A stretch of DNA of 64,000 bases, taken from the NCBI GenBank assembly GCA_963771175.1, contig CAVYSY010000036.1:32001-96000 (forward strand), given 5' to 3'. The notes beneath the pieces were generated by a model that did no database searches, was not told the DNA's origin, and worked only from the letters and a program-made list of their open reading frames with translations. The translations under genes and the position numbers were made by a program. The DNA is from an uncultured delta proteobacterium. Its GTDB lineage: Bacteria; Myxococcota; Myxococcia; Myxococcales; Myxococcaceae. The number at the start of each line of letters is the position of its first letter. Position 1 is the stretch's first letter. Below, in pieces: positions 44,612-57,626 of the stretch.

Positions 44612-46778
44612 TCAGGGATGCGCGATGACGATGAGCGTTGACGCCCGAGCTTCGACGCACGTCATCACCTTGCGCATGGTCACGGGGTCCAGCGCACCGA
44701 ACGCCTCGTCGAGCACCACGACACTGGCCCGCTGCAGCAGCGCCCGGGCCACGAAGACACGGCTCTGCTCCCCATGCGAGAGCTGCCACCCGCTCTCCCC
44801 GACCAGTTGCATCAATCCCGAGGGCATCCGGGCCAGCAGCTCCCCCAGCCCCAGCTCCTCACAGAGCGCTCGGGCGTTTTGCAGATCCTCCTGCGAGGGA
44901 GGCCAGGCGCGGCCCAACAGCAGGTTCATGGCCAGCGTGCCGGACACCACGTGGTTCTCGTGGAACTGAGGAGCACTGGCGATCTGCGCGCCCCACCCGT
45001 GCGACGTCCAGGTCGCCATGTCCAGGCCTCCCAGCAACAACAGCCCCGAGCCCTGGCCCCTCAACCCCGTCAGGATGGAGGCGAACGTCGACTTGCCCGA
45101 GCCAGAGGGCCCCTCGAGCAGCACGCGCTCTCCCGAGCGAACCACCAGAGAGGCCCGCTCGAGCACCGCCCGTGGCGCCCCCGCGTGCTTGAAGACCAGA
45201 TCGCGCACCTCGAGCAGGGCCTGGGCCTTCGGGGGCGCCGCGCCTGGGGAGAGAGGAGAGGCGCGGGTCACCCTGCCCTTCTCGCTCTCACGGGCCGCCT
45301 CTCCCGAGGCGTTGGAGCGCTTCGCGGCATCCAGGATGGGACGCACGCTGTGAAACAACACGCGCGCGCCGCTGAGGGCCAGGGCTCCGGTGGTCAGCGC
45401 CGCCAGCGCGCGCGTCGCCATGAGCGCGGCCCCCACTCCCACGGCGATCCTCGCGGTCGAGGCTCCCGCGAGCACGCCTGGGAGCGTCGCGAGGATCGCC
45501 ACCGGGAGGAGTCCCCGCCTGGAGAGCGCCACCACCCGCGCCGTCGCCGCGTCCCACTGCTCGGAGGCCTCGGCATAGTGGGCCAGCTCATGGTCCTCCT
45601 CCTCGTGCCAGCGCGCCGGCAGCTCCTGCGCGAGCCGCGTCCGGTGGCCGAGCATCCGCTCGATGAGCGCATGCGTCATGACGACCCGCGCCTCCGTCCA
45701 CCTGCGGAAGCGTGAGCGACTGGCGCGCGATCAGCACCGCCAGCAAGCAGCAGAAGCCCCCCAGCACCAGCAGCCCGAGCCAGCCCGCGGGGCCGGTCAC
45801 CATCACGCTCGCCGCCAGCACCAGATCGATCGCCGCCAGGAGGCTGGTGAAGCTGCCCACCAGCGCCATCTGCTCCATCCCCGCGCTCTCGAAAGTCCTC
45901 CCGACGTACTCGCCAATTCCACCGCGGCGCGCCTCGTCCACGGGCAGCGCGAGCGCCCCCGCCAGCAGGTCGCCTGCGCAGCAGCGCGGAGAGGTCCATC
46001 GCCAGGGACCCCTGCGACCAGGCCAGCGCCGCCTGGAGCGGCACCATCGTCAACCCCATGAGGGCCCAGGCCCAGAGCCACCCATGGTCGAGCTGCCCAT
46101 TGAACGCGCCCCGTCCAATCAACCACCAACCGGCGAGCAGGCACACCTGGACGACCACCGCCAGCAGCAAGAGCAGGACCAGCCGCCGTCCGGCCCGCAG
46201 CGACCGCAGGTGATGGACCAGACGGGCTCCAGGTGGCAGCCGGAGCGTGCGCGCGGCGATGAGGTGGGTATTGGCGAGCTGGGCTCCCAGCAACGCCCGC
46301 CGGGCCAGGGTCCGCTGGGGTGCCGGCAGTCCCGCTCGCTCCAGGACGCGATCGGCCACGGGCCCCTGTTGCGCCCTCGACGATCGCCTGCACGGCGGCG
46401 GTCAGCAGGGAGAAGGGAACCTCGTGCGGCGTCTCATCCGGGGCGATGAGGTCCGCGGCTCTCCCCCGAGGGGGACACGCGAAGCAGTGCGAGCACCCTA
46501 CGCCCCTGGGTGCTCGGCACATCCACGAGGGCCGGGGCCGCGCGGCCCAGGGCACGTTCCACTTCGCCGTGGCGCGTGTAGAGCAACTCCAACTCGAGCC
46601 CCAGCGCATGGGCCGAGGCGTCCAGCCACGCCCCCACGCGGCTCGGGTCCTCGGGTACCGCGCGCGAGAGGACCGGGAGCGGATTGGGGAGCGGCAACCG
46701 CGCCGCACGCGCCAGCGCCTCCAGGGCTTCGCCCGCTCGCGCGAACGGCCAGGACACTGCGTCCAGCTCACCCGACAT
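44612..46778 (-). CDS. ABC exporter subunit with degenerate peptidase-like N-terminus (frameshifts)
   Basis: Stitched from several ORFs starting MSGELDAVSWP; TM region; GPSGSGKST, LSHGEQSR, VVLDEAF, IAH. Confidence 0.82.
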
Positions 46779-49474
46779 GAGCCACCCCCTCCTCCTCCTC
46801 CTCGTGTCGCTCGGAGAGCACGCCCTGCTCCAGGACCAGCCGCCTCCACCCCTCCCGCCTGGACAGCTCCCCCCGCATCGACGCCTCCTCATCCAGCAGT
46901 GCGCGGTAGTGGGAGTCCTCGCACGCCGCGAGCGCCTGGGGAGCCCCGTCCTCGACCAGCCTCCCGTCCTTGATGACCAGGACGCGGTCGAACGAGAGCG
47001 TCTCGGCGATGTCATGCATGATGCAGAGCAGCGTGGTCCCCTCGAATCCCTGTCGTGCCCGCTCCAACAGCGCCGTGCGACGGTCTCGCTCGAGTCCCCG
47101 GAACGGCTCGTCGAAGATGGCCAGCCGCACCCCTGGCCGGAGCAACGCCCGGCCCAGGCGCACCCGCTGCCCCTCACCGCCCGACAACAGACTGCCCCCC
47201 TCGCCCAGCCGGGTCTCGAGCCCCTGGGGCAGCTTGTCGAGCAACTCGATGAGGTCGGCCCTGTGCAGCACCTGGCCCACCCGGGGCAGCACCTCGGCCT
47301 CGTCGGCGCCATAGGCGAGGTTGTCCACCAGGGACTTGTTCCAGAGCGTCACCTCGGGCTCCAACCACGCCGTCTCCCGCCTCAGCCGCCACAGGGCCGC
47401 CCCCTCCAGCGGCTCGCCATCCACCTCGACGCGGCCCGCGGCCGCCGGTGCCAGCCCAGGAGGACTGCCCACCAGTGACGATTTCCCAGCGCCCGAGGGG
47501 CCCACGATGGCGACGTGCTCCCCGGGTTGAACCGAGACATCAATCCCTTGCAGGAGGGTGTGGCCCCCGGCCTTCACCTCCACCTGACGCAGCGAGAACC
47601 CAACCCCCCGAGCCCCTTCCACCGGTCGCTCCGTCTGTCCTGGGGTGGCCAGCGCGACGCTCGTGGACACCTCGTCCGGAGCGAGCAGTGGCTCCATCAA
47701 TCGGCCAGTGAACGACGAGGCGGCGGGGTACTGGCGCAACGCCTCGGCGATCTGCTTGCCCAGCGTCGGCACGGCGAGCGCCCAGTAGACGAGCAGCAGG
47801 ACAGCCCCGGGTTGTACCCCCTTCGAGAGGGCGTGCAGGACAATGACAACCGAGCCCCCGGTGGCGGCGAGGGAGGCGAGCGTGTCCGCCGTGGTGCTGC
47901 GGCGCAGCAACGTGCGGGCCGCGGAGATGAACTCGTGCAGCGGCTCCTCATGAGCCCGGCGGAGCGTCAGCTCGGCATGGTGCGCCCGCAGCGCCACGGC
48001 CCCGCGCAAGGCGTCGAGGTAGAAGCGCGAGAGCACCCCGTCGAAGTCCCGCATCCGGCGATCGGCTTCGAGCAACGAGCGCTGCGCGACGAGGGGGATG
48101 CCGAGCGCCAGCCCACCCGCCAGGAAGATCAAGGGGGCGCTTCGCGGAGCCAACCACGTCAGCCCCACGAGCGTCACGAACAGCTCGGCGGCGGCGCGCA
48201 GCACCAGGGCCGCGAGGTTGGGCACGTTGCGCACCATGTGGATGCCATGGCAGCGCTGGGCCATGTCCGAGATGAGCCGGCTGCGGAAATAGCTGTCACC
48301 CAGGCGTGGGATTTTGTCGAGGAACGCGAGCCGGAGGCGGAGTTCCAACCGCCGTCCCAGGCGGAGCGTCCCGAGAGAGAGAGGCAGCTCGATCGCGAAC
48401 AGCACGCCCATCAGGACGAGCAGCGTCACGACGCCGGCGATCCGCTGTTCGGTGGTCGTGAGATAACGACCCGCGTCGATGACCCCGCGCAGGAGCAGCG
48501 CCTCCAGGAAGCCGCCCACCGCCGCGGTCACCCCCATGGCGGCGAGCACCCTCGGCGTGAGCACCCCGTCCCGGCGCATCAAGGCCACGAGCTCACGCAG
48601 GGGGCGGGTGGGCGCCTCCTTCAAGACGGCCTCGAGCCCCGGAGACAGCGGGGGTTCATCCTCCCCGTGCTCGCCGCGCAGCCCCTTCGCCCGGATGCAG
48701 ACGACGCCGCGCAAGGTGATCTCCTCGGCGTCCGGCCCTCCCACCGCCGTCCAATAGGCGGGGGGAATGAGCTCCTCGGCGCGACCCTCGTCCAGGGCCG
48801 TGCGCACCTCGAGCAGGAGCTGCTCGACGAACGCCGCCGCCGTCTCGCCAGGCTGGAGGCCGTCACCCTCCACGAGCGTCTGCACCAACCGCACCGTCGC
48901 ATCCAGGCAGGCCAGGCCCTTCCAGGTGGAATCCCCGAGCGCCTCGGCGACGAGTCGCTCCGACAACGGCCCCTCGACGAGCTCGGACAGCCTGCGACGC
49001 AGACCCACGAGGAACTCCTCCGTGCCGGCCCACTCCCGGAACCCCTCGGCGGACACGGGCATCGCGTGCACGAAGCACCGGTCGAGCAGCTCGGCGGCGG
49101 ACACCCACCGCCGCCCCAGCGCCGGATCCATGATCTGGACGCGGTTGCCCCACTTCTTCCAGAGCACCACGAAGTGCAGGTTGCCGTCCGCGAGCCTCAC
49201 CACCACGATGGCCGGCAGCGCCCCGGTCTCCTCGAGGAGCAGGTGATCGCGCGGGAGCATGCCCTGCTCCGCATCCAGCCCGAGGCTGACGGCCAGCTCC
49301 TCGAGCACATCCATGGACGTGCCGTCGACGTCGGTCTGGCAGAGCTCTCGGAGCCGTCCATAGCTGACCGGCACGCCGGAAGCCGCCGAGCAGGGCCTTG
49401 AGGGCCGCCGGACCGCAGTCCATGGCCGACGTCTGGATGACTTCTGGAACGAAAAGACGTGGTGCACCCGCCAT
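46768..49474 (-). CDS. Peptidase-containing ABC transporter (C39 + TMD + NBD; frameshift near 49380)
   Basis: QTSAMDCG (catalytic Cys), HFVVL (His), IMDPALG (Asp); GPSGAGKSS, LSGGEGQR, IFDEPF. Confidence 0.9.
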
Positions 49475-49477
49475 GGC

Positions 49478-50674
49478 TCAGCTCCCCCCCTTCGGCGACT
49501 CCGTCCCGCCCTCTACCCGCAGGACCCTGGGTTGCTCCCGTGCCGGACGGTCGAGCCCCCGACCCAAGGTGCGAAGCACGAGCTGCGACGGCGTGGCCTT
49601 CCCCACCGCGACGTCCACGAGGCCAGGCAACCCATGCTCGAGCGGAATGCCCGGCGGCAGCTCATCCACCGAGAGCTCGACTCGCACCAGGCCATCGCGA
49701 GGCTCACTCGCCACCGCCACCACCGTGGCCTCCAGCATCCCGAACTCCGCCCAGGAGAAGCCCTCCAACCGCATGCGAGCCCGCTGACCCTCGCGGATAC
49801 GCCCCAGGGCCTCCGGGGAGAACTGCGCGACGACGCGCACGGGTCCACCGGCGACGATGGTCGCGATGGGGTCACCGGCCTTGAGCTGCGCGCCCACGCG
49901 TACGGAGCTCGTCTCGCCGAGGACGCCATCCGCCGGCGCTCGAATGATACGGCGCTCCAGCTCCTCGCGCAGGCGCTCCACGTTGGCGCGCGCGACGCTC
50001 TCGTCCGACTCGAGCCGGGCAATCTCTCCCTGCAGCGCGGCGAGGCGGGTGCGCCGATCGGTGGACTGAATGCCACCTTCCGCTCTCACCCGCGCCAGCG
50101 TGGCCCGCGCGGCCTGCTCCGCGGCCAGGGACCGCTCCAGCTCCGTATGGGACCTGCTCCACTCCATCTCGCTCAACACGCCCCGCTTCCAGAGCCGCTC
50201 GGTGGTGGACTCCTCCTCCTTGGCCCGCCGCGCGACCGCCTCGGCATCGATGAGCCGGGCCCGCGCCTCCTCCACGCCCGCGATCCCCTGCCCTTTTTGC
50301 TCCACCAGGCCATGCTGCTCGGCCTCGAGCTCCGCGCGCGCCGCCTCGAGCTGAGGCCCCAGTCCTTGAAGCACGGCCTCCGCCTCCGCTACCCGGCGCT
50401 CCTCCTGCACATGCTCCAGCTCGACGAGCACATCTCCCGCATGCACGGGGCGGTGAAGCTCCACCTGCGTCTTCACCACCCGTCCCGCCACGGGTGCATC
50501 AATGGCGTACACCTCGCCATGGAGCTCCAGACGCGCCTGCGCGCTGCGCTCGTAGACGATGATGCGCGCCTGGAGGAACCAGCCCCCCCAGATCGCGAGC
50601 AGCCCCACCGGTATCAGCCAGAGCGCCGGCCGCCCGCGCCCGCGCACCAGGGCGCGCCAGGTGCGTGGAAACAT
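49478..50674 (-). CDS. HlyD-family membrane fusion protein
   Basis: TM anchor, IDAPVAGRV, coiled coil, IRAPADG; start could be TTG 50701. Confidence 0.9.
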   Translation of the reverse strand: MFPRTWRALVRGRGRPALWLIPVGLLAIWGGWFLQARIIVYERSAQARLELHGEVYAIDAPVAGRVVKTQVELHRPVHAGDVLVELEHVQEERRVAEAEAVLQGLGPQLEAARAELEAEQHGLVEQKGQGIAGVEEARARLIDAEAVARRAKEEESTTERLWKRGVLSEMEWSRSHTELERSLAAEQAARATLARVRAEGGIQSTDRRTRLAALQGEIARLESDESVARANVERLREELERRIIRAPADGVLGETSSVRVGAQLKAGDPIATIVAGGPVRVVAQFSPEALGRIREGQRARMRLEGFSWAEFGMLEATVVAVASEPRDGLVRVELSVDELPPGIPLEHGLPGLVDVAVGKATPSQLVLRTLGRGLDRPAREQPRVLRVEGGTESPKGGS

Positions 50675-50900
50675 GCCTTCGACCTTCAAGTGGCTGGCCA
50701 AATCGCCCCCCGTCTCGACCGTGCCGTCCTGCGGATGGAGGGGGCCCGTTGGCTTTGTCAGGGAGAGTGACGCTCCGAGGGAGCGGCCTGCTCGTCCTCC
50801 AGGCAGGCGTCTCGCCCAGGCATTCCGGAGGTGCCTCGCGTCACAAGAACCACCCCCCTGCTCAGACCGTACGCGAATCACACCTGTCTGGAGCTCTCGC

Positions 50901-52712
50901 ATGAGTCAGAACGCTGTATCGGTTGATCCCCACGAGACGCTGTACCTGCCCCTGCGGCGTCGCTTCATGAGCGAGTACGTGACCACGCCCGAGGGCACCC
51001 GGGAGCTGCGCATCTTCTACGGCCTCAAGGAGATCACGATCGATGAGCCGGACCTGCTCTCCTTCGGAGAGAACCTGCTCAAGCAGGACGAGTTCATGGC
51101 GGGCAGCGCCACCCTATGGAGCGAGGGTGAGCCCTACCCCTGGGAGCGCGTGAGGGAGCTGCTCGAGGCGCTGCTGGACGAGGAGATTCTCTCGCGCGAG
51201 GCCCCGAAGCCCGCGCCTTCGGAGAGTGACGTTCATCGAAGCTGGATGGAGGCCGAGGCCCGGCGGGTCGCGCCCACCGAGCCCCTGTGGTGGAACCCGG
51301 ACTGTCCCCGGGTCATGGAGCGGTTGGTGGGGCGGCCGCTGGAGTTGGGCTTCCTCGAAGCGGTGATTCCGGTGCATCGCGTCGCCCACCCGGCGCTCGA
51401 CGCGGAGGGGCGCCATATCGGGGAGAGCAACGTCTTCCCCGACGCCATGCGAATGAAGCTTCCGACGGATTGGCGACCGTGCCCCTACCCGGGCAGCCGC
51501 TATCGGGACGAGGCGATGATGAACGTGACGGCGCTCAAGTCGATGACACGGCACTGGAAGTCCGTGTTGCAGGGGGTGCTCGCGGTGCGAGAGGAGTTCC
51601 TGCGCCACCATCCCCTGCTCCCGGACGGGCGCTGGCGGCTGGGGGATCTTCACGCCCTGTGCTGCGCCGTGCTGGCTCTACCAACCCTGCGGTTGATGCG
51701 CGCGAACGCGCCCGTGCCCAATGGCGAGCTGGATCCCGTGCTCTCCTCCATGTTCCGGGTGACGGACGGCGTGCGGATGGTGACGGCCTACATGCTCTTC
51801 CTCCCGGAGCTGCCGATGCCGTACGACACGCCCATGACGGCGGCCGAGCTGCTCCGCTTCACCGAGCAGGACAATCACTTCCTGTCGACGCGGGGCGTCT
51901 GCGCCGGTCCCCCGCACATGGTGGAGGAGTTCCTCGCGACGCTGATGGATGGCAAGCCCGTGGCGGGCGTGCCCAGGCCCGCGGAGGAGTGGGACGACGA
52001 AATCCCCACGGCGATGGATTACGGGATGCGGGGACTCCAGCTCTATTGCCTCCAGTTCAACCTGTGGAGCCACATGTGCCGCGCCTACGAGTCGATCCGC
52101 GCGGCGCTGCTCGACGTGGAGGATGAGCCGGGTGGAATCTGGAGCCGGATGCGCGCGCGTGTCGAACGCGATTGGGCGATGATCCTGCCCACGCGACTGC
52201 ACACCTCCACCCAGCGAGATTGGGCAGAGGCCCGCTACATCGAGATGTTCGATCAGGCCCAGCGCGGCCTGAAGGGCTTCCGGGAGGACGCGCTGCTTCG
52301 CTTGCAGGACGTGTTCACCCCCGCGAGGGACGAAATGGATGGGAAGACCCGCCGGCAACTCCGACAGATGCTCCGCTCGCTCGCGGGCTCGCCCCCGGGG
52401 GCCCGGAGAGACGCCCTCGACACCATCGCGGACGCCGCGGCGGAGTTCCTGGCCCTCGAGCGCTCAACGCTTCGCGCCCTGGAAGGTGTTCAGCGCCAGG
52501 TCAATGCGTTGCTCCAGCGCCCCCATCCAGCGCGAAAGTTCTCCAGCGCGGATCTCTCGCTGCATCTCCGCCTGCGCCAGGGCACCATCGGCGTGCTGCC
52601 CTACCTGCTGGATGTATTCCGGGATGAGCTGGGCATCGTCGTCGAGAATACGGAGGACGACACCCGCTGCGATCTGGTCAGCTCGCCCTACCAGCAGGTA
52701 GCCCAGATGTGA
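50901..52712 (+). CDS. 603-aa hypothetical protein, candidate RiPP maturase (RRE-like N-terminus, unknown catalytic domain)
   Basis: Intact ORF from ATG 50901 with GGAG RBS, between the exporter and the precursors. CDS is well supported; the function is inference. Confidence 0.85.
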   Translation: MSQNAVSVDPHETLYLPLRRRFMSEYVTTPEGTRELRIFYGLKEITIDEPDLLSFGENLLKQDEFMAGSATLWSEGEPYPWERVRELLEALLDEEILSREAPKPAPSESDVHRSWMEAEARRVAPTEPLWWNPDCPRVMERLVGRPLELGFLEAVIPVHRVAHPALDAEGRHIGESNVFPDAMRMKLPTDWRPCPYPGSRYRDEAMMNVTALKSMTRHWKSVLQGVLAVREEFLRHHPLLPDGRWRLGDLHALCCAVLALPTLRLMRANAPVPNGELDPVLSSMFRVTDGVRMVTAYMLFLPELPMPYDTPMTAAELLRFTEQDNHFLSTRGVCAGPPHMVEEFLATLMDGKPVAGVPRPAEEWDDEIPTAMDYGMRGLQLYCLQFNLWSHMCRAYESIRAALLDVEDEPGGIWSRMRARVERDWAMILPTRLHTSTQRDWAEARYIEMFDQAQRGLKGFREDALLRLQDVFTPARDEMDGKTRRQLRQMLRSLAGSPPGARRDALDTIADAAAEFLALERSTLRALEGVQRQVNALLQRPHPARKFSSADLSLHLRLRQGTIGVLPYLLDVFRDELGIVVENTEDDTRCDLVSSPYQQVAQM

Positions 52713-52786
52713 TTCGAATGAGAATCACAAGGAGTTCGTCCCTCGCTCCTCCTGTGTGAGGTGTCTCAGAAAGGAGGAGTAAACAC

Positions 52787-52897
52787 ATGAAGATCAAGAC
52801 GAAGATTCGGGGTGGTGCGCGCACGTGCTTCGGTGGCATCTTCGGACCCATCGTCGTTCGCCCCCCAGTCCTCCGACCGCCCATCTCCCTCGCGTAG
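52787..52897 (+). CDS. Putative RiPP precursor A1: MKIKTKIRGG-ARTCFGGIFGPIVVRPPVLRPPISLA
   Basis: Manual translation; strong RBS AAGGAGGAG; double-Gly leader shared with A2 and A3. Confidence 0.85.
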   Translation: MKIKTKIRGGARTCFGGIFGPIVVRPPVLRPPISLA

Positions 52898-52931
52898 AAG
52901 AATCCAGGGAGAAGGATCCGCGTTTGATTCA

Positions 52932-52967
52932 AGTCGCCAGTGGGCGGAGCATCGCCTGCTGGCGACT
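52932..52967 (+). terminator. GC-rich stem-loop after precursor A1 (copy 1)
   Basis: AGTCGCCAGTGGGCG-GAGCAT-CGCCTGCTGGCGACT, with only a weak T-tract. Confidence 0.6.
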
Positions 52968-53093
52968 GTGTCTTGCGGGGTACGGCTCGTCGTCCCACAC
53001 GGGCCTTTTGAAAACAACTCAGACAAAAATCACAAGCGCCACGCCCCATGCTCAATCCGTACGTAGCGCGTAGCGCTCAGGAGGAGCAAACAC

Positions 53094-53162
53094 ATGAAGG
53101 TCAAGACCAAGGTTCGTGGTGGTGCTCGGATGTGCAGCGGCGGCAGCGGCACTTTCTTCTAG
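53094..53162 (+). CDS. Putative RiPP precursor A2: MKVKTKVRGG-ARMCSGGSGTFF
   Basis: Manual translation; RBS AGGAGGAG-CAAACAC-ATG. Confidence 0.85.
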   Translation: MKVKTKVRGGARMCSGGSGTFF

Positions 53163-53212
53163 CCGCAGAAGTACCCGATGGATTCGCACTCTCACTCAGG
53201 AGGAGCAAACAC

Positions 53213-53278
53213 ATGAAGATCAAGACCAAGATTCGGGGCGGAGCTCGCTCGTGTAGCGGCGGCGGCACCTTCTTCTAG
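53213..53278 (+). CDS. Putative RiPP precursor A3: MKIKTKIRGG-ARSCSGGGTFF
   Basis: Manual translation; same RBS context as A2; forms the C-terminus of track ORF 53048..53278. Confidence 0.85.
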   Translation: MKIKTKIRGGARSCSGGGTFF

Positions 53279-53302: not shown

Positions 53303-53344
53303 AGTCGCCAGTGGGCGGAACATCGCCCGCTGGCGACTCTTTTT
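53303..53344 (+). terminator. Rho-independent terminator after precursor A3 (copy 2 of the stem-loop)
   Basis: AGTCGCCAGTGGGCG-GAACAT-CGCCCGCTGGCGACT followed by CTTTTT. Confidence 0.75.
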
Positions 53345-53365
53345 CGTGGGAGGGTCTGGAGGGGA

Positions 53366-54868
53366 CTACCCGGCGGCGGCGGGAGAGACAGGGCGCTGCA
53401 CCTGTACGCCGGGCAGCATGGGCGCCGGGTTGAGCGACAGGATGAGCAGGCTGCGCAGGGCCTCCTTGAGGTCCTCTCCCACGCTGGCCGCCCCCGCCGG
53501 TGCGCCCTGCAGCTCCGCCGGCACCGGGTGGCCCACCACCACCACCGGAATGCGGACGTCCCACGCCAGGAAGTACGCCAGCTTCACCGCCGCCTCCGAC
53601 GTGTCGAACAGCAGCGCCCCCGCGGCTCCCGAGCTGAACGGCCGCCACAGCGGCCTCGCCGCCTCCGCCGGAGGCAGCACGCAGAAGTCCAGGTGCAGCA
53701 GCTCGTGCAGAGCCATCCGCCCCAGCGTCCCGAAGCCGCTCTTCACCGCGGGGGGCTCGGCCGCCACGGCCGCGATGTCCGGCATCTGCGACAGCAGCCG
53801 GCGCGCCACCGCCGGACCACTGCCGCACACGAAGATCTTCGCGGTGGCCTCGCGCGAGGCGCCCTTGCCCCGCAGGATGCGTCCGCGCAGCGCGTGCAGC
53901 TCGGCGGGCCCCATCAGCGGGCCGCTGTGCCCCTCCTCCGTCTCCCCCTCGGCTACGCGGGCCACGCCCTTCTGGAGGAGCGTGTGCAGCACGCCCACCA
54001 CCTCCAGGTCCGTGGCCGGCGCCAGGTCCAACACCTCGCCCACCGCCCGGGGCTGGCGCAACAGCTCCACCACCTGCGCCGTCACCGGGTGCTGGTCCTG
54101 CGTCAGGTCCGCGTCCGGCGCGAGCACCAGCCGGGCGTTGCGCGGCGGCAGCCCCGGCAGCAGCCGGTTCACCTCGTCCGCCTGGCGCATCGCCTCCAGC
54201 AGCGAGTCGTCCATCCCGCGCTGGATGCGCGGCTTTCCCCCGCTGCCTCCCGGCGCGAAGGTGAACGAGCCCTCGGCCCACACCAGCAGCCGGAAGAGGG
54301 CCTTCTCTCCCTCGGCCCGGCCCACGCGCGCGTTCGCCGGGCGGCCCTCCACCACCGATATCTCTCCGCGCTCGTTGCCCCGCTCCAGCGTCAGCTTCCC
54401 GCTGCGCTTGTTCATCCCCAGAATCTGCATCAGGTCCGGGATGCTGAGCTGGCTGAGCGAGCCTTCGATCTCCTGCACATCGCTCTTGAGGTCCTTCGCC
54501 GCCTCGTTGCGGCGGAAGACGTGCTCGATGCGGGAGAGCACCTCGTCGATGTTGAAGGGCTTGCGCAGGTAGCCCTCACGCAGGCCACGGGCCTTGTCCG
54601 CCTCGAACCTGCCGGTGGAGACCAGCACCGGGATGTCATCCGTGCGCGGGTTGGTGCGCAGGATGTTGATGAAGGTGCGCGCGTCCAGCAGATGGCACGC
54701 CTCATCGAAGAGGATGAGCTCCGGGTGGCGCAGCACGGCCACCTCCAGGGCCCGCGAGCCATCCGGCGCGTAGTGCACCTGGTAGCCCTTGGTGCGCAAC
54801 GCACGGGAGAGCGGGCGGACCGACTCGAGATCGGGGTCGGCGATGAGGATCTTTCGAACCTGGGCCAC
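53366..54868 (-). CDS. REC + DUF4388 + degenerate small-GTPase-like domain protein
   Basis: KILIADPD...LILFDE...RKPF receiver; GSLSQLSIPDLMQILGMNKRSG (DUF4388). Confidence 0.85.
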   Translation of the reverse strand: MAQVRKILIADPDLESVRPLSRALRTKGYQVHYAPDGSRALEVAVLRHPELILFDEACHLLDARTFINILRTNPRTDDIPVLVSTGRFEADKARGLREGYLRKPFNIDEVLSRIEHVFRRNEAAKDLKSDVQEIEGSLSQLSIPDLMQILGMNKRSGKLTLERGNERGEISVVEGRPANARVGRAEGEKALFRLLVWAEGSFTFAPGGSGGKPRIQRGMDDSLLEAMRQADEVNRLLPGLPPRNARLVLAPDADLTQDQHPVTAQVVELLRQPRAVGEVLDLAPATDLEVVGVLHTLLQKGVARVAEGETEEGHSGPLMGPAELHALRGRILRGKGASREATAKIFVCGSGPAVARRLLSQMPDIAAVAAEPPAVKSGFGTLGRMALHELLHLDFCVLPPAEAARPLWRPFSSGAAGALLFDTSEAAVKLAYFLAWDVRIPVVVVGHPVPAELQGAPAGAASVGEDLKEALRSLLILSLNPAPMLPGVQVQRPVSPAAAG

Positions 54869-54880
54869 GGGCGCTCCCTG

Positions 54881-56731
54881 CTAGTACGGCTGGAGATCGT
54901 ATTCCGACTGCAGGCGGGTGATGAGCCCGTCCACCACGGCGGTGTCCGACGAGTGGAAGCCCCAGGTGGTGCCCAGCCCGCGGCGCTGGATGAGCGCGTA
55001 GGCGGCGTTCTCCGAGAGCCAGAGGAGGAACTCGTGCCGGCCCATCCGCTCGTCCCCCTCCAGGAAGACAGGCGTGAGTCCCGGGTGCGACTCCAGATCC
55101 GACCGTCGCCCCAGCAGGTAGATGCGCGAGGCCATGTCGGGCGGGGCCGACTCCAACCCCAGCGCGATGGGCAGGTCCGCTCGGATTTCGGGGCTGCCCA
55201 CGTACAGCAGCCCGCGCGAGGTCGGATCCCTCAGCAGCTCGCGGGCGATCTCCGCCTGCAGCTCGTCGAAGAGGACGTCGGACACCTTGCCCCGACGAGA
55301 GGGCTCGGCGTTGTCCTCCACCGGCAGCCTGGGGCTGGAGGCGTTGCCGAGCAGCAGGTCCACCTCGTCCCAGAAGGGCAGCGTGTCCAGCATCAGCTTG
55401 CGCTGCAGTGACGAGCGCCGCTCGTCCATGCGCCGACGGCAGCGGTGGACCAGCTCGTCGAAGTCCTCGCCGTCCTTGGGAAAGGTGCTCGCCCCGCCCA
55501 CCAGCGCGAGCGGCAGGCGCGACTCCACCTCCTGCGCATCCGGCTCCTCGCGCACCGCGGCCAGCGCGCGGCGCACGAACATGATCGCGCCGAAGAAGTC
55601 CGTCTCCGGCAGCAGCAGGTAGAACTCCTGGTCGCTCGCCTTGGCGATGACGTCCGAGTCGCGGACGATCTTCGAGAGCGCCTTGATGATGCCGCGCACG
55701 GCGCGCTTGGCGTCCTGCGTCCCCAGCCGCATCTTCACCAGGGGCAGGTTGTCCACGGAGAACGTCAGCAGCGAGAACATCCGCCCGTAGCGCCGCGCCT
55801 TGTAGATTTCCTTGGAGGCGTAGTCGGTGAAGTAGCTGAGGTTGTAGGCGGCGGTGTCCCGGTCCCGCAGGCCGAGCCGCTGCAGCGACTGCACCCGGCG
55901 GCCGTTCTTGATGCCCACCGCGGCCGAGTCCCCGAGAATCTTCGCGTAGCGCACGTGCTCGGAGCGGAAGTCCCCGGCGAGCGGGTCCGAGAGCTGCGCC
56001 AGGCCCATGATCTCCCCGCTGAGGACGAAGGGGACGTAGAGCACGGGAGAGCGCTCGTCGCGGGCGATCCACGGCATGGCCTCGCGCAGGCGGTTGCCGA
56101 GCGGCCCCTCGGGGCTCATGCGCTCGGCGAGGAACTGCCTGTCCAGCAGGCCCCGGTAGGCGCGCAGGACGAGGTGTCCCCGGTCGTCGGCGATCCACAG
56201 CGCGGCGCTCTGGGCGTCGCACACGGAGGCGAGCTCGGCGGCCACGCGCTCCTGGAGCCACTCGAGGTCCGGCTGGGAGAGGAGCTCCAGACAGCGCTGG
56301 TGGAGGTTCTGGTAGCGGGCGAACTCGAGGTTCTCGCTCTGGAGCTGGGCGCGCTCGTGGCGGAGCTGGGCGCGCTCCGTGGCCCGCTCCGTGGCGAGCA
56401 GCAGGTCCGTCTCGTCCACGGGCTTGGAGAGGACGACGGCCACCCCGGCGCTCAGGGCCATGGCCGAGCCCTTCACGTCCGTGCGCTGGGTAATGAGGAT
56501 GACCTCCTGGTCGGGGTCGCGCTCGCGCAGCTTCGCGGTGAGGGCAAAGCCATCCAGCTCGGGCATCACCACATCGGTGATGACCAGGTCGAAGGAGGTG
56601 CGAGCCACCTCTTCCAGCGCCCGGGCGGCGCTCTCCACCGTGACGACGCGGTAGCCCCTCCGGGTGAGCATGTCGGAGGCGAGCTGCCGGAAGAAGTTGT
56701 CGTCATCGACGACGAGGATCGGACCAGCCAC
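54881..56731 (-). CDS. REC-GAF-degenerate GGDEF response regulator
   Basis: ILVVDDD...ITDVVMP receiver; GAF; RDSDVIAKASDQEF in place of R.GGDEF. Confidence 0.88.
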   Translation of the reverse strand: MAGPILVVDDDNFFRQLASDMLTRRGYRVVTVESAARALEEVARTSFDLVITDVVMPELDGFALTAKLRERDPDQEVILITQRTDVKGSAMALSAGVAVVLSKPVDETDLLLATERATERAQLRHERAQLQSENLEFARYQNLHQRCLELLSQPDLEWLQERVAAELASVCDAQSAALWIADDRGHLVLRAYRGLLDRQFLAERMSPEGPLGNRLREAMPWIARDERSPVLYVPFVLSGEIMGLAQLSDPLAGDFRSEHVRYAKILGDSAAVGIKNGRRVQSLQRLGLRDRDTAAYNLSYFTDYASKEIYKARRYGRMFSLLTFSVDNLPLVKMRLGTQDAKRAVRGIIKALSKIVRDSDVIAKASDQEFYLLLPETDFFGAIMFVRRALAAVREEPDAQEVESRLPLALVGGASTFPKDGEDFDELVHRCRRRMDERRSSLQRKLMLDTLPFWDEVDLLLGNASSPRLPVEDNAEPSRRGKVSDVLFDELQAEIARELLRDPTSRGLLYVGSPEIRADLPIALGLESAPPDMASRIYLLGRRSDLESHPGLTPVFLEGDERMGRHEFLLWLSENAAYALIQRRGLGTTWGFHSSDTAVVDGLITRLQSEYDLQPY

Positions 56732-56768
56732 GGCGTGAGGGACTCGAGGGGGAAGTGGACAGCGGAGG

Positions 56769-57626
56769 TTACCGGCCCTCGAGATCCGGGACAACGCCCG
56801 TGAAGACGAAGGCCGCGGGCCCGCGGAGGCGGATGTCCGACAGGTCCGCCAGCACCCGGATGTGCAGGTCACCGCCCGGCAGGTTGACACGCAGCCAGGC
56901 ATCCGCCTGGACGCGCTTGGCGAGCACCGCCGCCACGGCCGCCGCGCCAGCCCCGGTGCCACAGGCCTGGGTGAGGCCACAGCCGCGCTCCCACACCACC
57001 ACGGTCAGGCCGCCGTCCGCGTCCACCCGGGTGAACTCGACGTTGGTGCGGTCCGGGAAGCCGGGGTGCCGTTCGAGCTGGGGGCCCAGGCGGCCCGCGT
57101 CCTCGAGGGGCTGGTCGAGCAGGACGAGGTGCGGGTTGCCCATGCTGATGGCATGGCCGCGCAGCCCGGAGTGGCCGGGCACGGGCTCATCGAGGAACGG
57201 CTGGCCGGTGGCACCCGAGGGCAGGTTGGAGGCGACGAGCCGCGCCGGCCCCAGGGAGAGCTCCACCTCCGCCACGCCGTCCGCGCCGTACCTGGGCATG
57301 CACGTGAGGATTCCGGCGCCCGTCTCCACTTCGATGGACTCGGGCCGCTCGCCGGAGTTGTCCACGAGGTACTTCACCGCGCACCGCAGGCCGTTGCCGC
57401 ACATCTCCGCGACGCTGCCATCGGCGTTGTGGACCACCATCCGCGCCACCGCCGACTCCGAGGGCAGCAGGGAGAGGATGCCATCCGCGCCGATGCCCAG
57501 GCGCCGATCGCACAGCAACCGCGACGTCTCCGCGTCGACGTCCATCCCGGTCTTGCGACGGTCCAGCACGATGAAGTCGTTGCCGATGCCGTGATACTTG
57601 AAGAAGAACTCTGCGCCGGCGCTCAT
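56769..57626 (-). CDS. dapF: Diaminopimelate epimerase
   Basis: KYHGIGNDF, EMCGNG, MGNPH, WERGCGLTQACGTG. Confidence 0.96.
   Translation of the reverse strand: MSAGAEFFFKYHGIGNDFIVLDRRKTGMDVDAETSRLLCDRRLGIGADGILSLLPSESAVARMVVHNADGSVAEMCGNGLRCAVKYLVDNSGERPESIEVETGAGILTCMPRYGADGVAEVELSLGPARLVASNLPSGATGQPFLDEPVPGHSGLRGHAISMGNPHLVLLDQPLEDAGRLGPQLERHPGFPDRTNVEFTRVDADGGLTVVVWERGCGLTQACGTGAGAAAVAAVLAKRVQADAWLRVNLPGGDLHIRVLADLSDIRLRGPAAFVFTGVVPDLEGR

Follow-up and report, generated by a model that had tools for sequence, protein, structure and literature searches.

Results

Three micro-ORFs with a common head adjoin the gene of a conserved protein

The DNA analysed here, called the window, is a stretch of 64,000 nt from an uncultured delta proteobacterium of the Myxococcaceae (assembly GCA_963771175.1, contig CAVYSY010000036.1, positions 32,001 to 96,000 of the forward strand), in which we scanned the listed open reading frames (ORFs) and searched all six frames for a peptide pattern. 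Our subject is a set of three micro-ORFs, A1, A2 and A3, together with the neighbouring gene of a protein that we call X (Table 1). An initial annotation, made from the letters alone, had proposed that the micro-ORFs have an unusually short double-glycine leader, which could pair as a beta-strand with a RiPP recognition element (RRE; RiPP, ribosomally made, post-translationally modified peptide), and an invariant cysteine in the core as the likely modified residue.

As that annotation had it, the three ORFs encode 36, 22 and 21 residues and each stands behind GGAGGAG-N7-ATG in the context AGGAG(T/C)AAACAC-ATGAAG. They share the start MK(I/V)KTK(I/V)RGGAR-x-C, and in the ORF list A3 has no entry of its own, being the end of a longer in-frame ORF (53048..53278). 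A comparison of codons 1-14 in A2 and A3 shows five synonymous changes (R8, G9, G10, R12, C14), two I/V exchanges and one variable residue (M/S13), so that the differences in the leader are indeed synonymous or conservative, and such codon variety under a fixed peptide argues for selection at the level of the protein. By a repeat search, the three units are direct repeats of 93 nt that form one family with 67-78% identity. The exact sequence of A1 is present, without a name, in the public protein collection.

Table 1. Peptide genes, X, transport genes and RNA-level features at the locus (positions in the window).
Feature	Positions	Strand	Remarks
X, candidate modifying enzyme	50901..52712	+	ORF of 603 aa; directly upstream of the peptide genes, same strand
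Shine-Dalgarno-like AGGAGGAG	52772..52779	+	7 nt ahead of the A1 ATG
A1, precursor-like micro-ORF	52787..52897	+	36 aa, MKIKTKIRGGARTCFGGIFGPIVVRPPVLRPPISLA; conserved 10-aa N-terminus, A-R-T-C, Gly-/Pro-rich tail
Stable hairpin after A1	52932..52967	+	no good T tract; near-copy of the hairpin after A3
Shine-Dalgarno-like GGAGGAG before A2	53080..53086	+	sequence reading
A2, micro-ORF	53094..53162	+	22 aa, MKVKTKVRGGARMCSGGSGTFF; leader, A-R-M-C, SGGSGTFF
Shine-Dalgarno-like GGAGGAG before A3	53199..53205	+	sequence reading
A3, micro-ORF	53213..53278	+	21 aa, MKIKTKIRGGARSCSGGGTFF; leader, A-R-S-C, SGGGTFF
Intrinsic-terminator-like hairpin and T tract	53303..53348	+	16 pairs (53303-53338), then CTTTTTCGTG
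HlyD-family membrane-fusion protein	49478..50902	-	divergent from X; Pfam HlyD_3 5.7e-17; weak NHLM_micro_HlyD match below cut-off
Peptidase_C39 ABC exporter (peptidase-containing ABC transporter, PCAT; NHLM_micro_ABC1-like)	46768..49474	-	Pfam Peptidase_C39 and ABC_tran
Second ABC exporter (NHLM_micro_ABC2-like)	44612..~46660	-	five fragments; Pfam ABC_tran on the 3' piece

The micro-ORFs belong to a peptide family that accompanies X in several phyla

The search pattern, M[KQNR][IVL][KRTS][TS]x[IVLM][RHQAK][GAS][GAS], covers ten positions and matched the window at A1, A2 and A3 only. In it, positions 2-5 and 7-10 are confined to preset residue classes, so that conservation of the leader is partly built in and only the skew inside the allowed classes is informative. 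A genome scan with one genome per species matched 228 stretches, 195 of which encode a relative of X, and the best 80 of these X-encoding stretches yielded 76 distinct loci (L001-L076) from Myxococcota, Methylococcales and other Gammaproteobacteria, Burkholderiales (Betaproteobacteria), one alphaproteobacterium, a metagenome-assembled genome (MAG) of Planctomycetota and MAGs of Acidobacteria. As the loci were picked by the presence of an X relative, the census of peptides is anchored on X. The pattern scan found the head MK[IV]K[TS]x[IV]R[GAS]G on 143 micro-ORFs in 69 of the 76 loci, and a looser look raised this to 73 loci, with extra variants in L037, L049, L053 and L054 (that of L049, with R-A-N at the end of the leader, falls outside the pattern). 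The three loci left over are bounded closely: the sequence stops 2 nt past X in L058 and 116 nt past X in L061, and in L003 X lies 274 nt from the upstream contig end. All but one of the 143 matches are on the strand of X, and 137 lie within 1.5 kb of it, 99 downstream and 38 upstream. The micro-ORFs are thus kept at the protein level across several phyla, and the conservation in related genomes that the initial annotation anticipated was found.

Statistics on the peptides were drawn from 146 sequences, namely the 143 matches and A1, A2 and A3 of the window. The peptides are 15-57 residues long, all start with ATG, and 136 are preceded by a Shine-Dalgarno-like GGAG, GAGG or AGGA. Although the pattern allows G, A or S at position 10, this residue is G in 145 of the 146; position 9 holds A (69 peptides), G (67) or S (10), which makes an end of the GG/GA/GS type, and position 7, that is -4 relative to this end, is V, I, L or M throughout. 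The conserved part of the family is exactly the first 10 residues, ending in [G/A/S]-G, in agreement with the leader length first proposed.

Beyond residue 10, at least one cysteine is found in 141 of the 146 peptides and exactly one in 135. The core cysteine of the initial annotation is therefore near-universal, but its fourth place in the core is not fixed: among 130 unique single-Cys peptides, from which the statistics of the Cys context were taken, the Cys stands 2-43 residues from G10 (mode 3) and is followed by a tail of 0-37. In 126 of these 130 peptides an Arg stands no more than three residues from the Cys, as opposed to 30% of other core positions; Arg occupies -2 in 61 peptides and -1 in 35, and Gly occupies +1 in 54 and +2 in 56. 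These counts describe peptides with a constant head of 10 residues, a spacer of variable length, an R-x-C-G site and finally a variable, often hydrophobic tail; the window peptides, with 7, 8 and 22 residues after the Cys, represent the type with a short spacer.

Searched with a profile built from 64 peptides, a public protein set yielded 696 peptide clusters at E <= 0.01, and the names of these, where given, are 'hypothetical' except for one stray JGI label, 'GTPase'. Exact look-up of ten peptides found six among public proteins, with no informative name, and scans of the window's three and seven other family peptides against NCBIfam and Pfam (E <= 0.1-1) returned no family. These data bear on the question of whether the three units might be non-coding repeats, such as regulatory sites or small RNAs, in which the ORFs are incidental. 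The units are direct repeats associated with strong hairpins, as such elements might be, but the invariable ATG, the Shine-Dalgarno-like motif ahead of nearly all members, the synonymous codon changes under a fixed peptide, the core DNA that diverges while the Cys codon is kept, and the 696 homologous clusters recovered by a protein profile leave very little room for this explanation.

A subclass of long peptides (38-57 residues, and up to 77 as annotated publicly) has a hydrophilic spacer rich in Ser, Gly and Asn and, in 24 of the 24 fetched, the C-terminus ...VPPV(S/G)RCxGx with the Cys fourth from the end (L039, L048, L052, L054, L055, L060, L062-L064, L066, L067, L069, L075; P0284-P0385). 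A CaaX-like C-terminus was considered for the family in general and dropped, as all 24 long peptides fit it and the window peptides, by their tails, do not. Two further candidates were rejected. An AgrD-like thiolactone (Cys plus downstream carboxyl) is at odds with members that end at the Cys (LIPRSC, SAQRC, RSRCC). A lipoprotein signal with a lipobox, as suggested by the automatic UniRef name 'Lipoprotein' of one member, was dropped because only three residues separate the basic start from the Cys in the window peptides, which have no hydrophobic core.

Two side observations concern the head itself. In methanotroph-type loci, Cys-free peptides with the shared leader lie upstream of X (L052:7706-7819, L065:7625-7729, L066:6941-7042); two of them are rich in His, with repeats such as DDAPGHVR..GHG, and these peptides may represent a different cargo on the same head. 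T-ending codons dominate the leader even in high-GC genomes (codon 7, GTT in 61 and ATT in 27; codon 8, CGT in 64; codon 10, GGT in 69; each of 146), a bias that hints at a constraint beyond the amino acid, for example translation speed, mRNA structure or shared descent.

Where paralogues of X stand in tandem (L025, L026, L033), X genes and peptide sets alternate and the types of core differ. Similarly, three Myxococcaceae species each have one X locus with P-R-x-C-G peptides (L013, L014, L015) and a second one with G-R-G-C-[GA]-G-G peptides (L019, L029, L018). Since such modules differ in their cores, each lineage of X appears to keep its own peptides.

X combines an acidic winged-helix domain with an invariant core

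Scans of X against Pfam and NCBIfam returned no family, a word-indexed search gave 390 homologues, all 'hypothetical', and a full HMMER scan (E <= 0.001) gave 1192 cluster representatives. An alignment of 83 sequences led to an AlphaFold model of X (pLDDT 92.5, pTM 0.90) with a mostly helical body. Foldseek with full-length X found no match in the PDB at E <= 0.001, the remainder being helical matches of low TM and one local winged-helix match; when the PDB was searched with sequence profiles, be it of X or of the N-domain, all that came back were helical matches ascribed to chance, and the ESM Atlas gave only weak winged-helix leads (0.83) and, for residues 125-365, no usable match.

The N-domain (approximately residues 13-95) is predicted to consist of three strands (22-28, 34-40 and 43-47) and three helices (beta3-alpha3), an order also obtained when residues 8-104 were modelled alone (pLDDT 90.2). 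Three ribosomal oxygenases, MINA53, NO66 and YcfD, provided its top Foldseek matches with their winged-helix domains (E 0.0042 and TMq 0.64 for the best). Seven RRE-bearing RiPP enzymes were also among the top 50, with TMq values of 0.40-0.56: LynD (three entries), TruD, ThcOx, PbtF (RRE), CteB, TbtB and McbB (6gri_2, E 0.025, TMq 0.53). An RRE-like fold of the modelled N-domain is thereby moderately supported. The RRE that the initial annotation had invoked thus finds a possible counterpart in this winged helix and in the RRE enzymes among its matches, but none of them reaches E <= 0.001. RRE domains bind a short stretch of the leader as an added strand, and PqqA (~23 residues) illustrates that very short precursors can use an RRE. 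The N-domain carries a net charge of -3 to -12 in 74 of 74 homologues, with E35, E44, D48, E49 and E57 conserved, and would thus complement the leader, whose four basic residues give it a charge of +4.

In the remainder of the protein, E153, H163, D167, E175, C194, R200 and N208, and likewise W219, R286, D289, C334, Y374 and R540, are each present in 234-236 of the 236 full-length members. Such a pattern of conservation is typical of an active site, and, judged by this conservation, X looks like an enzyme. Inspection of its sequence revealed neither a signal peptide nor a hydrophobic N-terminus.

Some relatives of X are parts of larger proteins: in P0191, P0205 and P0206 a DUF7059 and an MTS S-adenosylmethionine (SAM) methyltransferase domain are fused to its C-terminus, and in P0201 a GNAT acetyltransferase stands in front of it.

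Exporter genes are linked to the peptides, and both ABC genes of the window are frameshifted

The peptide genes, X and the HlyD gene are intact in the window, the true start of the last probably lying downstream of the listed one. The gene for the C39-ABC exporter has one extra C near 49376, 17 codons past the catalytic Cys (GGCTTCCGGCGTG in the window versus GGCTTCGGCGTG in L001, L002 and L007, by tblastn and DNA alignment). By this insertion QTSAMDCGPAAL, the motif with the catalytic Cys, which shares its frame with ATG 49474, is put out of frame with the rest of C39-ABC, and ATG 49474 opens an out-of-frame ORF of 203 residues; the C39-ABC ORF of 899 residues starts at GTG 49467 and is devoid of the Cys motif. 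The second ABC gene matches the ABC2 proteins of L013 and L057 in five pieces with four frame switches (tblastn). These broken genes may reflect real decay (pseudogenes) or assembly errors. At other loci C39-ABC occupies a single frame in nearly all complete cases, L046 being the exception, and the seven relatives displayed (L001, L002, L005, L007, L010, L013, L057) keep QTSAMDCGPAAL and the HF(V/I)V motif.

By tblastn against the 76 loci, with C39 counted within 8 kb, C39 was found in 34 loci, HlyD in 35 and the second ABC in 34, and where a genome has more than one X locus, the exporter often stands beside just one (L011 not L006, L022 not L023, L013 not L019). This linkage raises the possibility that the peptides are secreted unmodified, in the manner of bacteriocins, microcins or pheromones, by the exporter only, and that X is an immunity, sensing or regulatory protein. 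The PCAT-type exporter beside the peptides in the window and in 34 loci, the [G/A/S]-G that closes the conserved part and the lack of a recognisable catalytic fold in X are all compatible with such a scheme. It is X, however, that is the constant partner, with peptides flanking it in 73 of the 76 loci as opposed to 34 for C39, and this protein has no signal peptide, some 13 invariant polar residues and an RRE-like domain, is in some homologues fused to a methyltransferase or GNAT domain as is common for tailoring enzymes, and forms tandem modules with peptides that suggest a one-to-one pairing. We regard secretion of unmodified peptides as quite improbable.

How the peptides might be cleaved is a separate matter. 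According to one source (PMC10885120), PCATs cut after GG, GA or GS, and the characterised C39 domains (ComA, LahT) recognise an amphipathic helix that is hydrophobic at positions -4, -7 and -12 (and -15). In the family, residue -7 is nearly always K (135 of the 146 peptides) and otherwise T (6) or R (5), and positions -12 and -15 do not exist in a leader of 10 residues. Hence the double-glycine leader of the initial annotation was upheld as regards the [G/A/S]-G end and the hydrophobic -4, but not as regards -7 and -12, and, with only -4 in line with the known rule, PCATs that cut after G10 would have to recognise their substrate differently. One may also suppose that X modifies the peptides while the 10-residue N-terminus stays in place, or is removed by some other protease, such as an S8 subtilase, with [G/A/S]-G serving as a hinge. 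The missing hydrophobic residues at -7 and -12, the 42 loci without C39 within 8 kb, the frameshift in the C39 gene of the window and the S8 proteases upstream of X in four of the 76 loci speak for this. Conversely, positions 10 (G in 145 of 146), 9 (G, A or S) and 7 (V, I, L or M) match the rule for the cut site, in part because the pattern presets them, the catalytic motifs of C39 are intact in the seven relatives displayed, and multi-X genomes often have the exporter at one of their X loci. On these grounds retention of the head, or its removal by another protease, seems unlikely to us, if worth keeping in mind.

Further genes are linked to X in subsets of the 76 loci (tblastn). Homologues of MauG/MbnH-family di-haem cytochrome c peroxidase-like proteins were found in 16, and in two cases the gene immediately precedes X in the same orientation (L013:6126-7787, L057:5657-7870); a second, periplasmic modification step is a possible role for this protein. 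S8 subtilases, as mentioned, lie upstream of X in four loci, and an arginase-family gene occurs in two. The latter, in two Kofleriaceae loci (L038:10916-12241, L047:3220 onward), stands just past the peptide array, a position of note given the conserved Arg beside the Cys of the peptides. No di-haem, S8 protease or arginase-family gene was found in the 64-kb window.

RNA elements and convergent genes

The hairpin after A1 has a predicted folding energy of -32.1 kcal/mol (z -6.1), a stability reached by 0 of 200 shuffled sequences, and that after A3 one of -34.3 kcal/mol (z -8.3). The hairpin after A3 scores as an intrinsic terminator, and it ends the peptide operon. Upstream of A1, CUCCUCC at 52745-52753 is predicted to pair with the Shine-Dalgarno-like GGAGGAG of this gene (centroid, 9 bases), with a z of only -1.3, and this pairing may be due to chance. 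Convergent with the operon, on the minus strand, lie genes for two response regulators, one with DUF4388 (53366-54868) and the other with GAF and GGDEF domains (54881-56980).

Discussion

We regard X and the peptides as a new enzyme family and a new peptide family within the logic of RiPPs. On balance, we favour the interpretation that A1-A3 are the precursor peptides of an undescribed RiPP-like family, the members of which are probably modified at one cysteine and then exported. A literature search by leader and core strings and by keywords, with subscription journals and supplements outside its scope, found no paper on the family.

The pathway might proceed in three steps. First, the basic 10-residue N-terminus would dock, probably as an extended strand, on the acidic winged-helix domain of X. 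The conserved core of X (E153, H163, D167, E175, C194, R200, N208, R286, D289, C334, Y374, R540) would then act on the R-x-C of the peptide, and the most economical guess at the chemistry is a thiol-directed alkylation, a cross-linking or a redox reaction. Finally, in the family at large, the gene linkage suggests that the C39-ABC/ABC/HlyD exporter would cut after [G/A/S]-G and secrete the product. As both ABC genes of the window read as frameshifted, export from this locus would need a transporter encoded elsewhere, unless the frameshifts are assembly errors.

Several points weigh against this interpretation. From gene linkage, patterns of conservation and resemblance of fold, all of which we observed, we infer the translation of the peptides, their binding to X, the site of modification, the modification as such and the cleavage. 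The conservation of the leader owes something to the classes preset in the pattern, and 5 of the 146 peptides have no Cys. The likeness of the N-domain to RREs lies at the level of the fold, with no Foldseek match at E <= 0.001 and the winged helix of ribosomal oxygenases at the top, and, as the body of X resembles no solved structure, it is the conservation of residues that designates X as an enzyme. As to export, a C39 gene lies within 8 kb in only 34 of the 76 loci, residue -7 (Lys, Thr or Arg) and the missing -12 set the peptides apart from characterised C39 substrates, and the window itself has an extra C in the C39-ABC gene and a second ABC gene in five pieces.

A further-reaching proposal, which we put forward tentatively and hold to be somewhat less probable than not, is that the system constitutes a new class of RiPP, with possibly the shortest leader of the RRE type (a basic strand of 10 residues), an acidic winged-helix reader, an enzyme body without solved relative and a novel reaction on an Arg-flanked Cys. 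In its boldest form, this reaction would be a metal- or thiol-assisted S-alkylation or cross-link; the ...VPPV(S/G)RCxGx end of the long peptides and the SAM methyltransferase fusions of some X homologues, taken together, loosely recall the processing of CaaX proteins in eukaryotes. If the proposed pathway is real, at least ~1200 enzyme clusters and ~700 peptide clusters without a Pfam or NCBIfam name would belong to it; it would bring to peptide natural products an enzyme fold that is new and a cysteine chemistry that probably is too, and would illustrate how little leader an RRE-type system needs. A portable tag of 10 residues for enzyme-guided modification of peptides would also be useful in engineering.

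Comparison with known systems

Akin to the NHLP/Nif11 peptides and their NHLM exporter trio (C39-ABC1, ABC2 and HlyD; TIGR03796, TIGR03797, TIGR03794), the family has several paralogous precursors that share a conserved N-terminal part and are hypervariable in the core, with a leader that ends in a Gly-Gly-type motif, and the architecture of the exporter is alike; this trio is the best specific NCBIfam resemblance of the window's three transport genes, all below the cut-offs. As opposed to the NHLP/Nif11 leaders, however, which exceed 70 residues according to PMC10885120, the leader here has 10 residues and the partner enzyme is unrelated. Homology of the leader to nitrile-hydratase alpha or Nif11 was not seen, the ten peptides scanned matching no NCBIfam or Pfam family.

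Class II lanthipeptides and other double-glycine peptides exported by PCATs (ComC/ComA, LahA/LahT) share with the family the [G/A/S]-G end, the hydrophobic -4 and a C39-ABC gene nearby (frameshifted beside the window peptides), but the helical recognition pattern at -7, -12 and -15 is absent from the 10-residue leader. Scans with Pfam and NCBIfam found no LanM, LanB/LanC, LanKC or LanL domain in X or its neighbours.

The methanobactin pathway (MbnA with MbnBC and MbnH/MbnP) is similar in its short precursors, in the logic of a modified Cys and, at 16 of the 76 loci, in a MauG/MbnH-family protein; it differs from the system of the window, which has no di-haem gene. Scans of ORFs from the window and from five related loci revealed no DUF692/MNIO gene. 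The ChrH MNIOs, as described in PMC13056109, act on CPxCGxG substrates and represent a different system.

A parallel in design is seen with the RRE-dependent RiPP enzymes (the PqqD type, LynD/TruD, McbB, PbtF, CteB, TbtB), on which the N-domain of X superposes, although X has no sequence similarity to them and its body is not that of a YcaO, E1-like, radical-SAM or LanB enzyme. While the pathway thus falls outside the NHLP/Nif11, lanthipeptide and MNIO groups, it resembles that of an RRE-guided RiPP exported by a PCAT.

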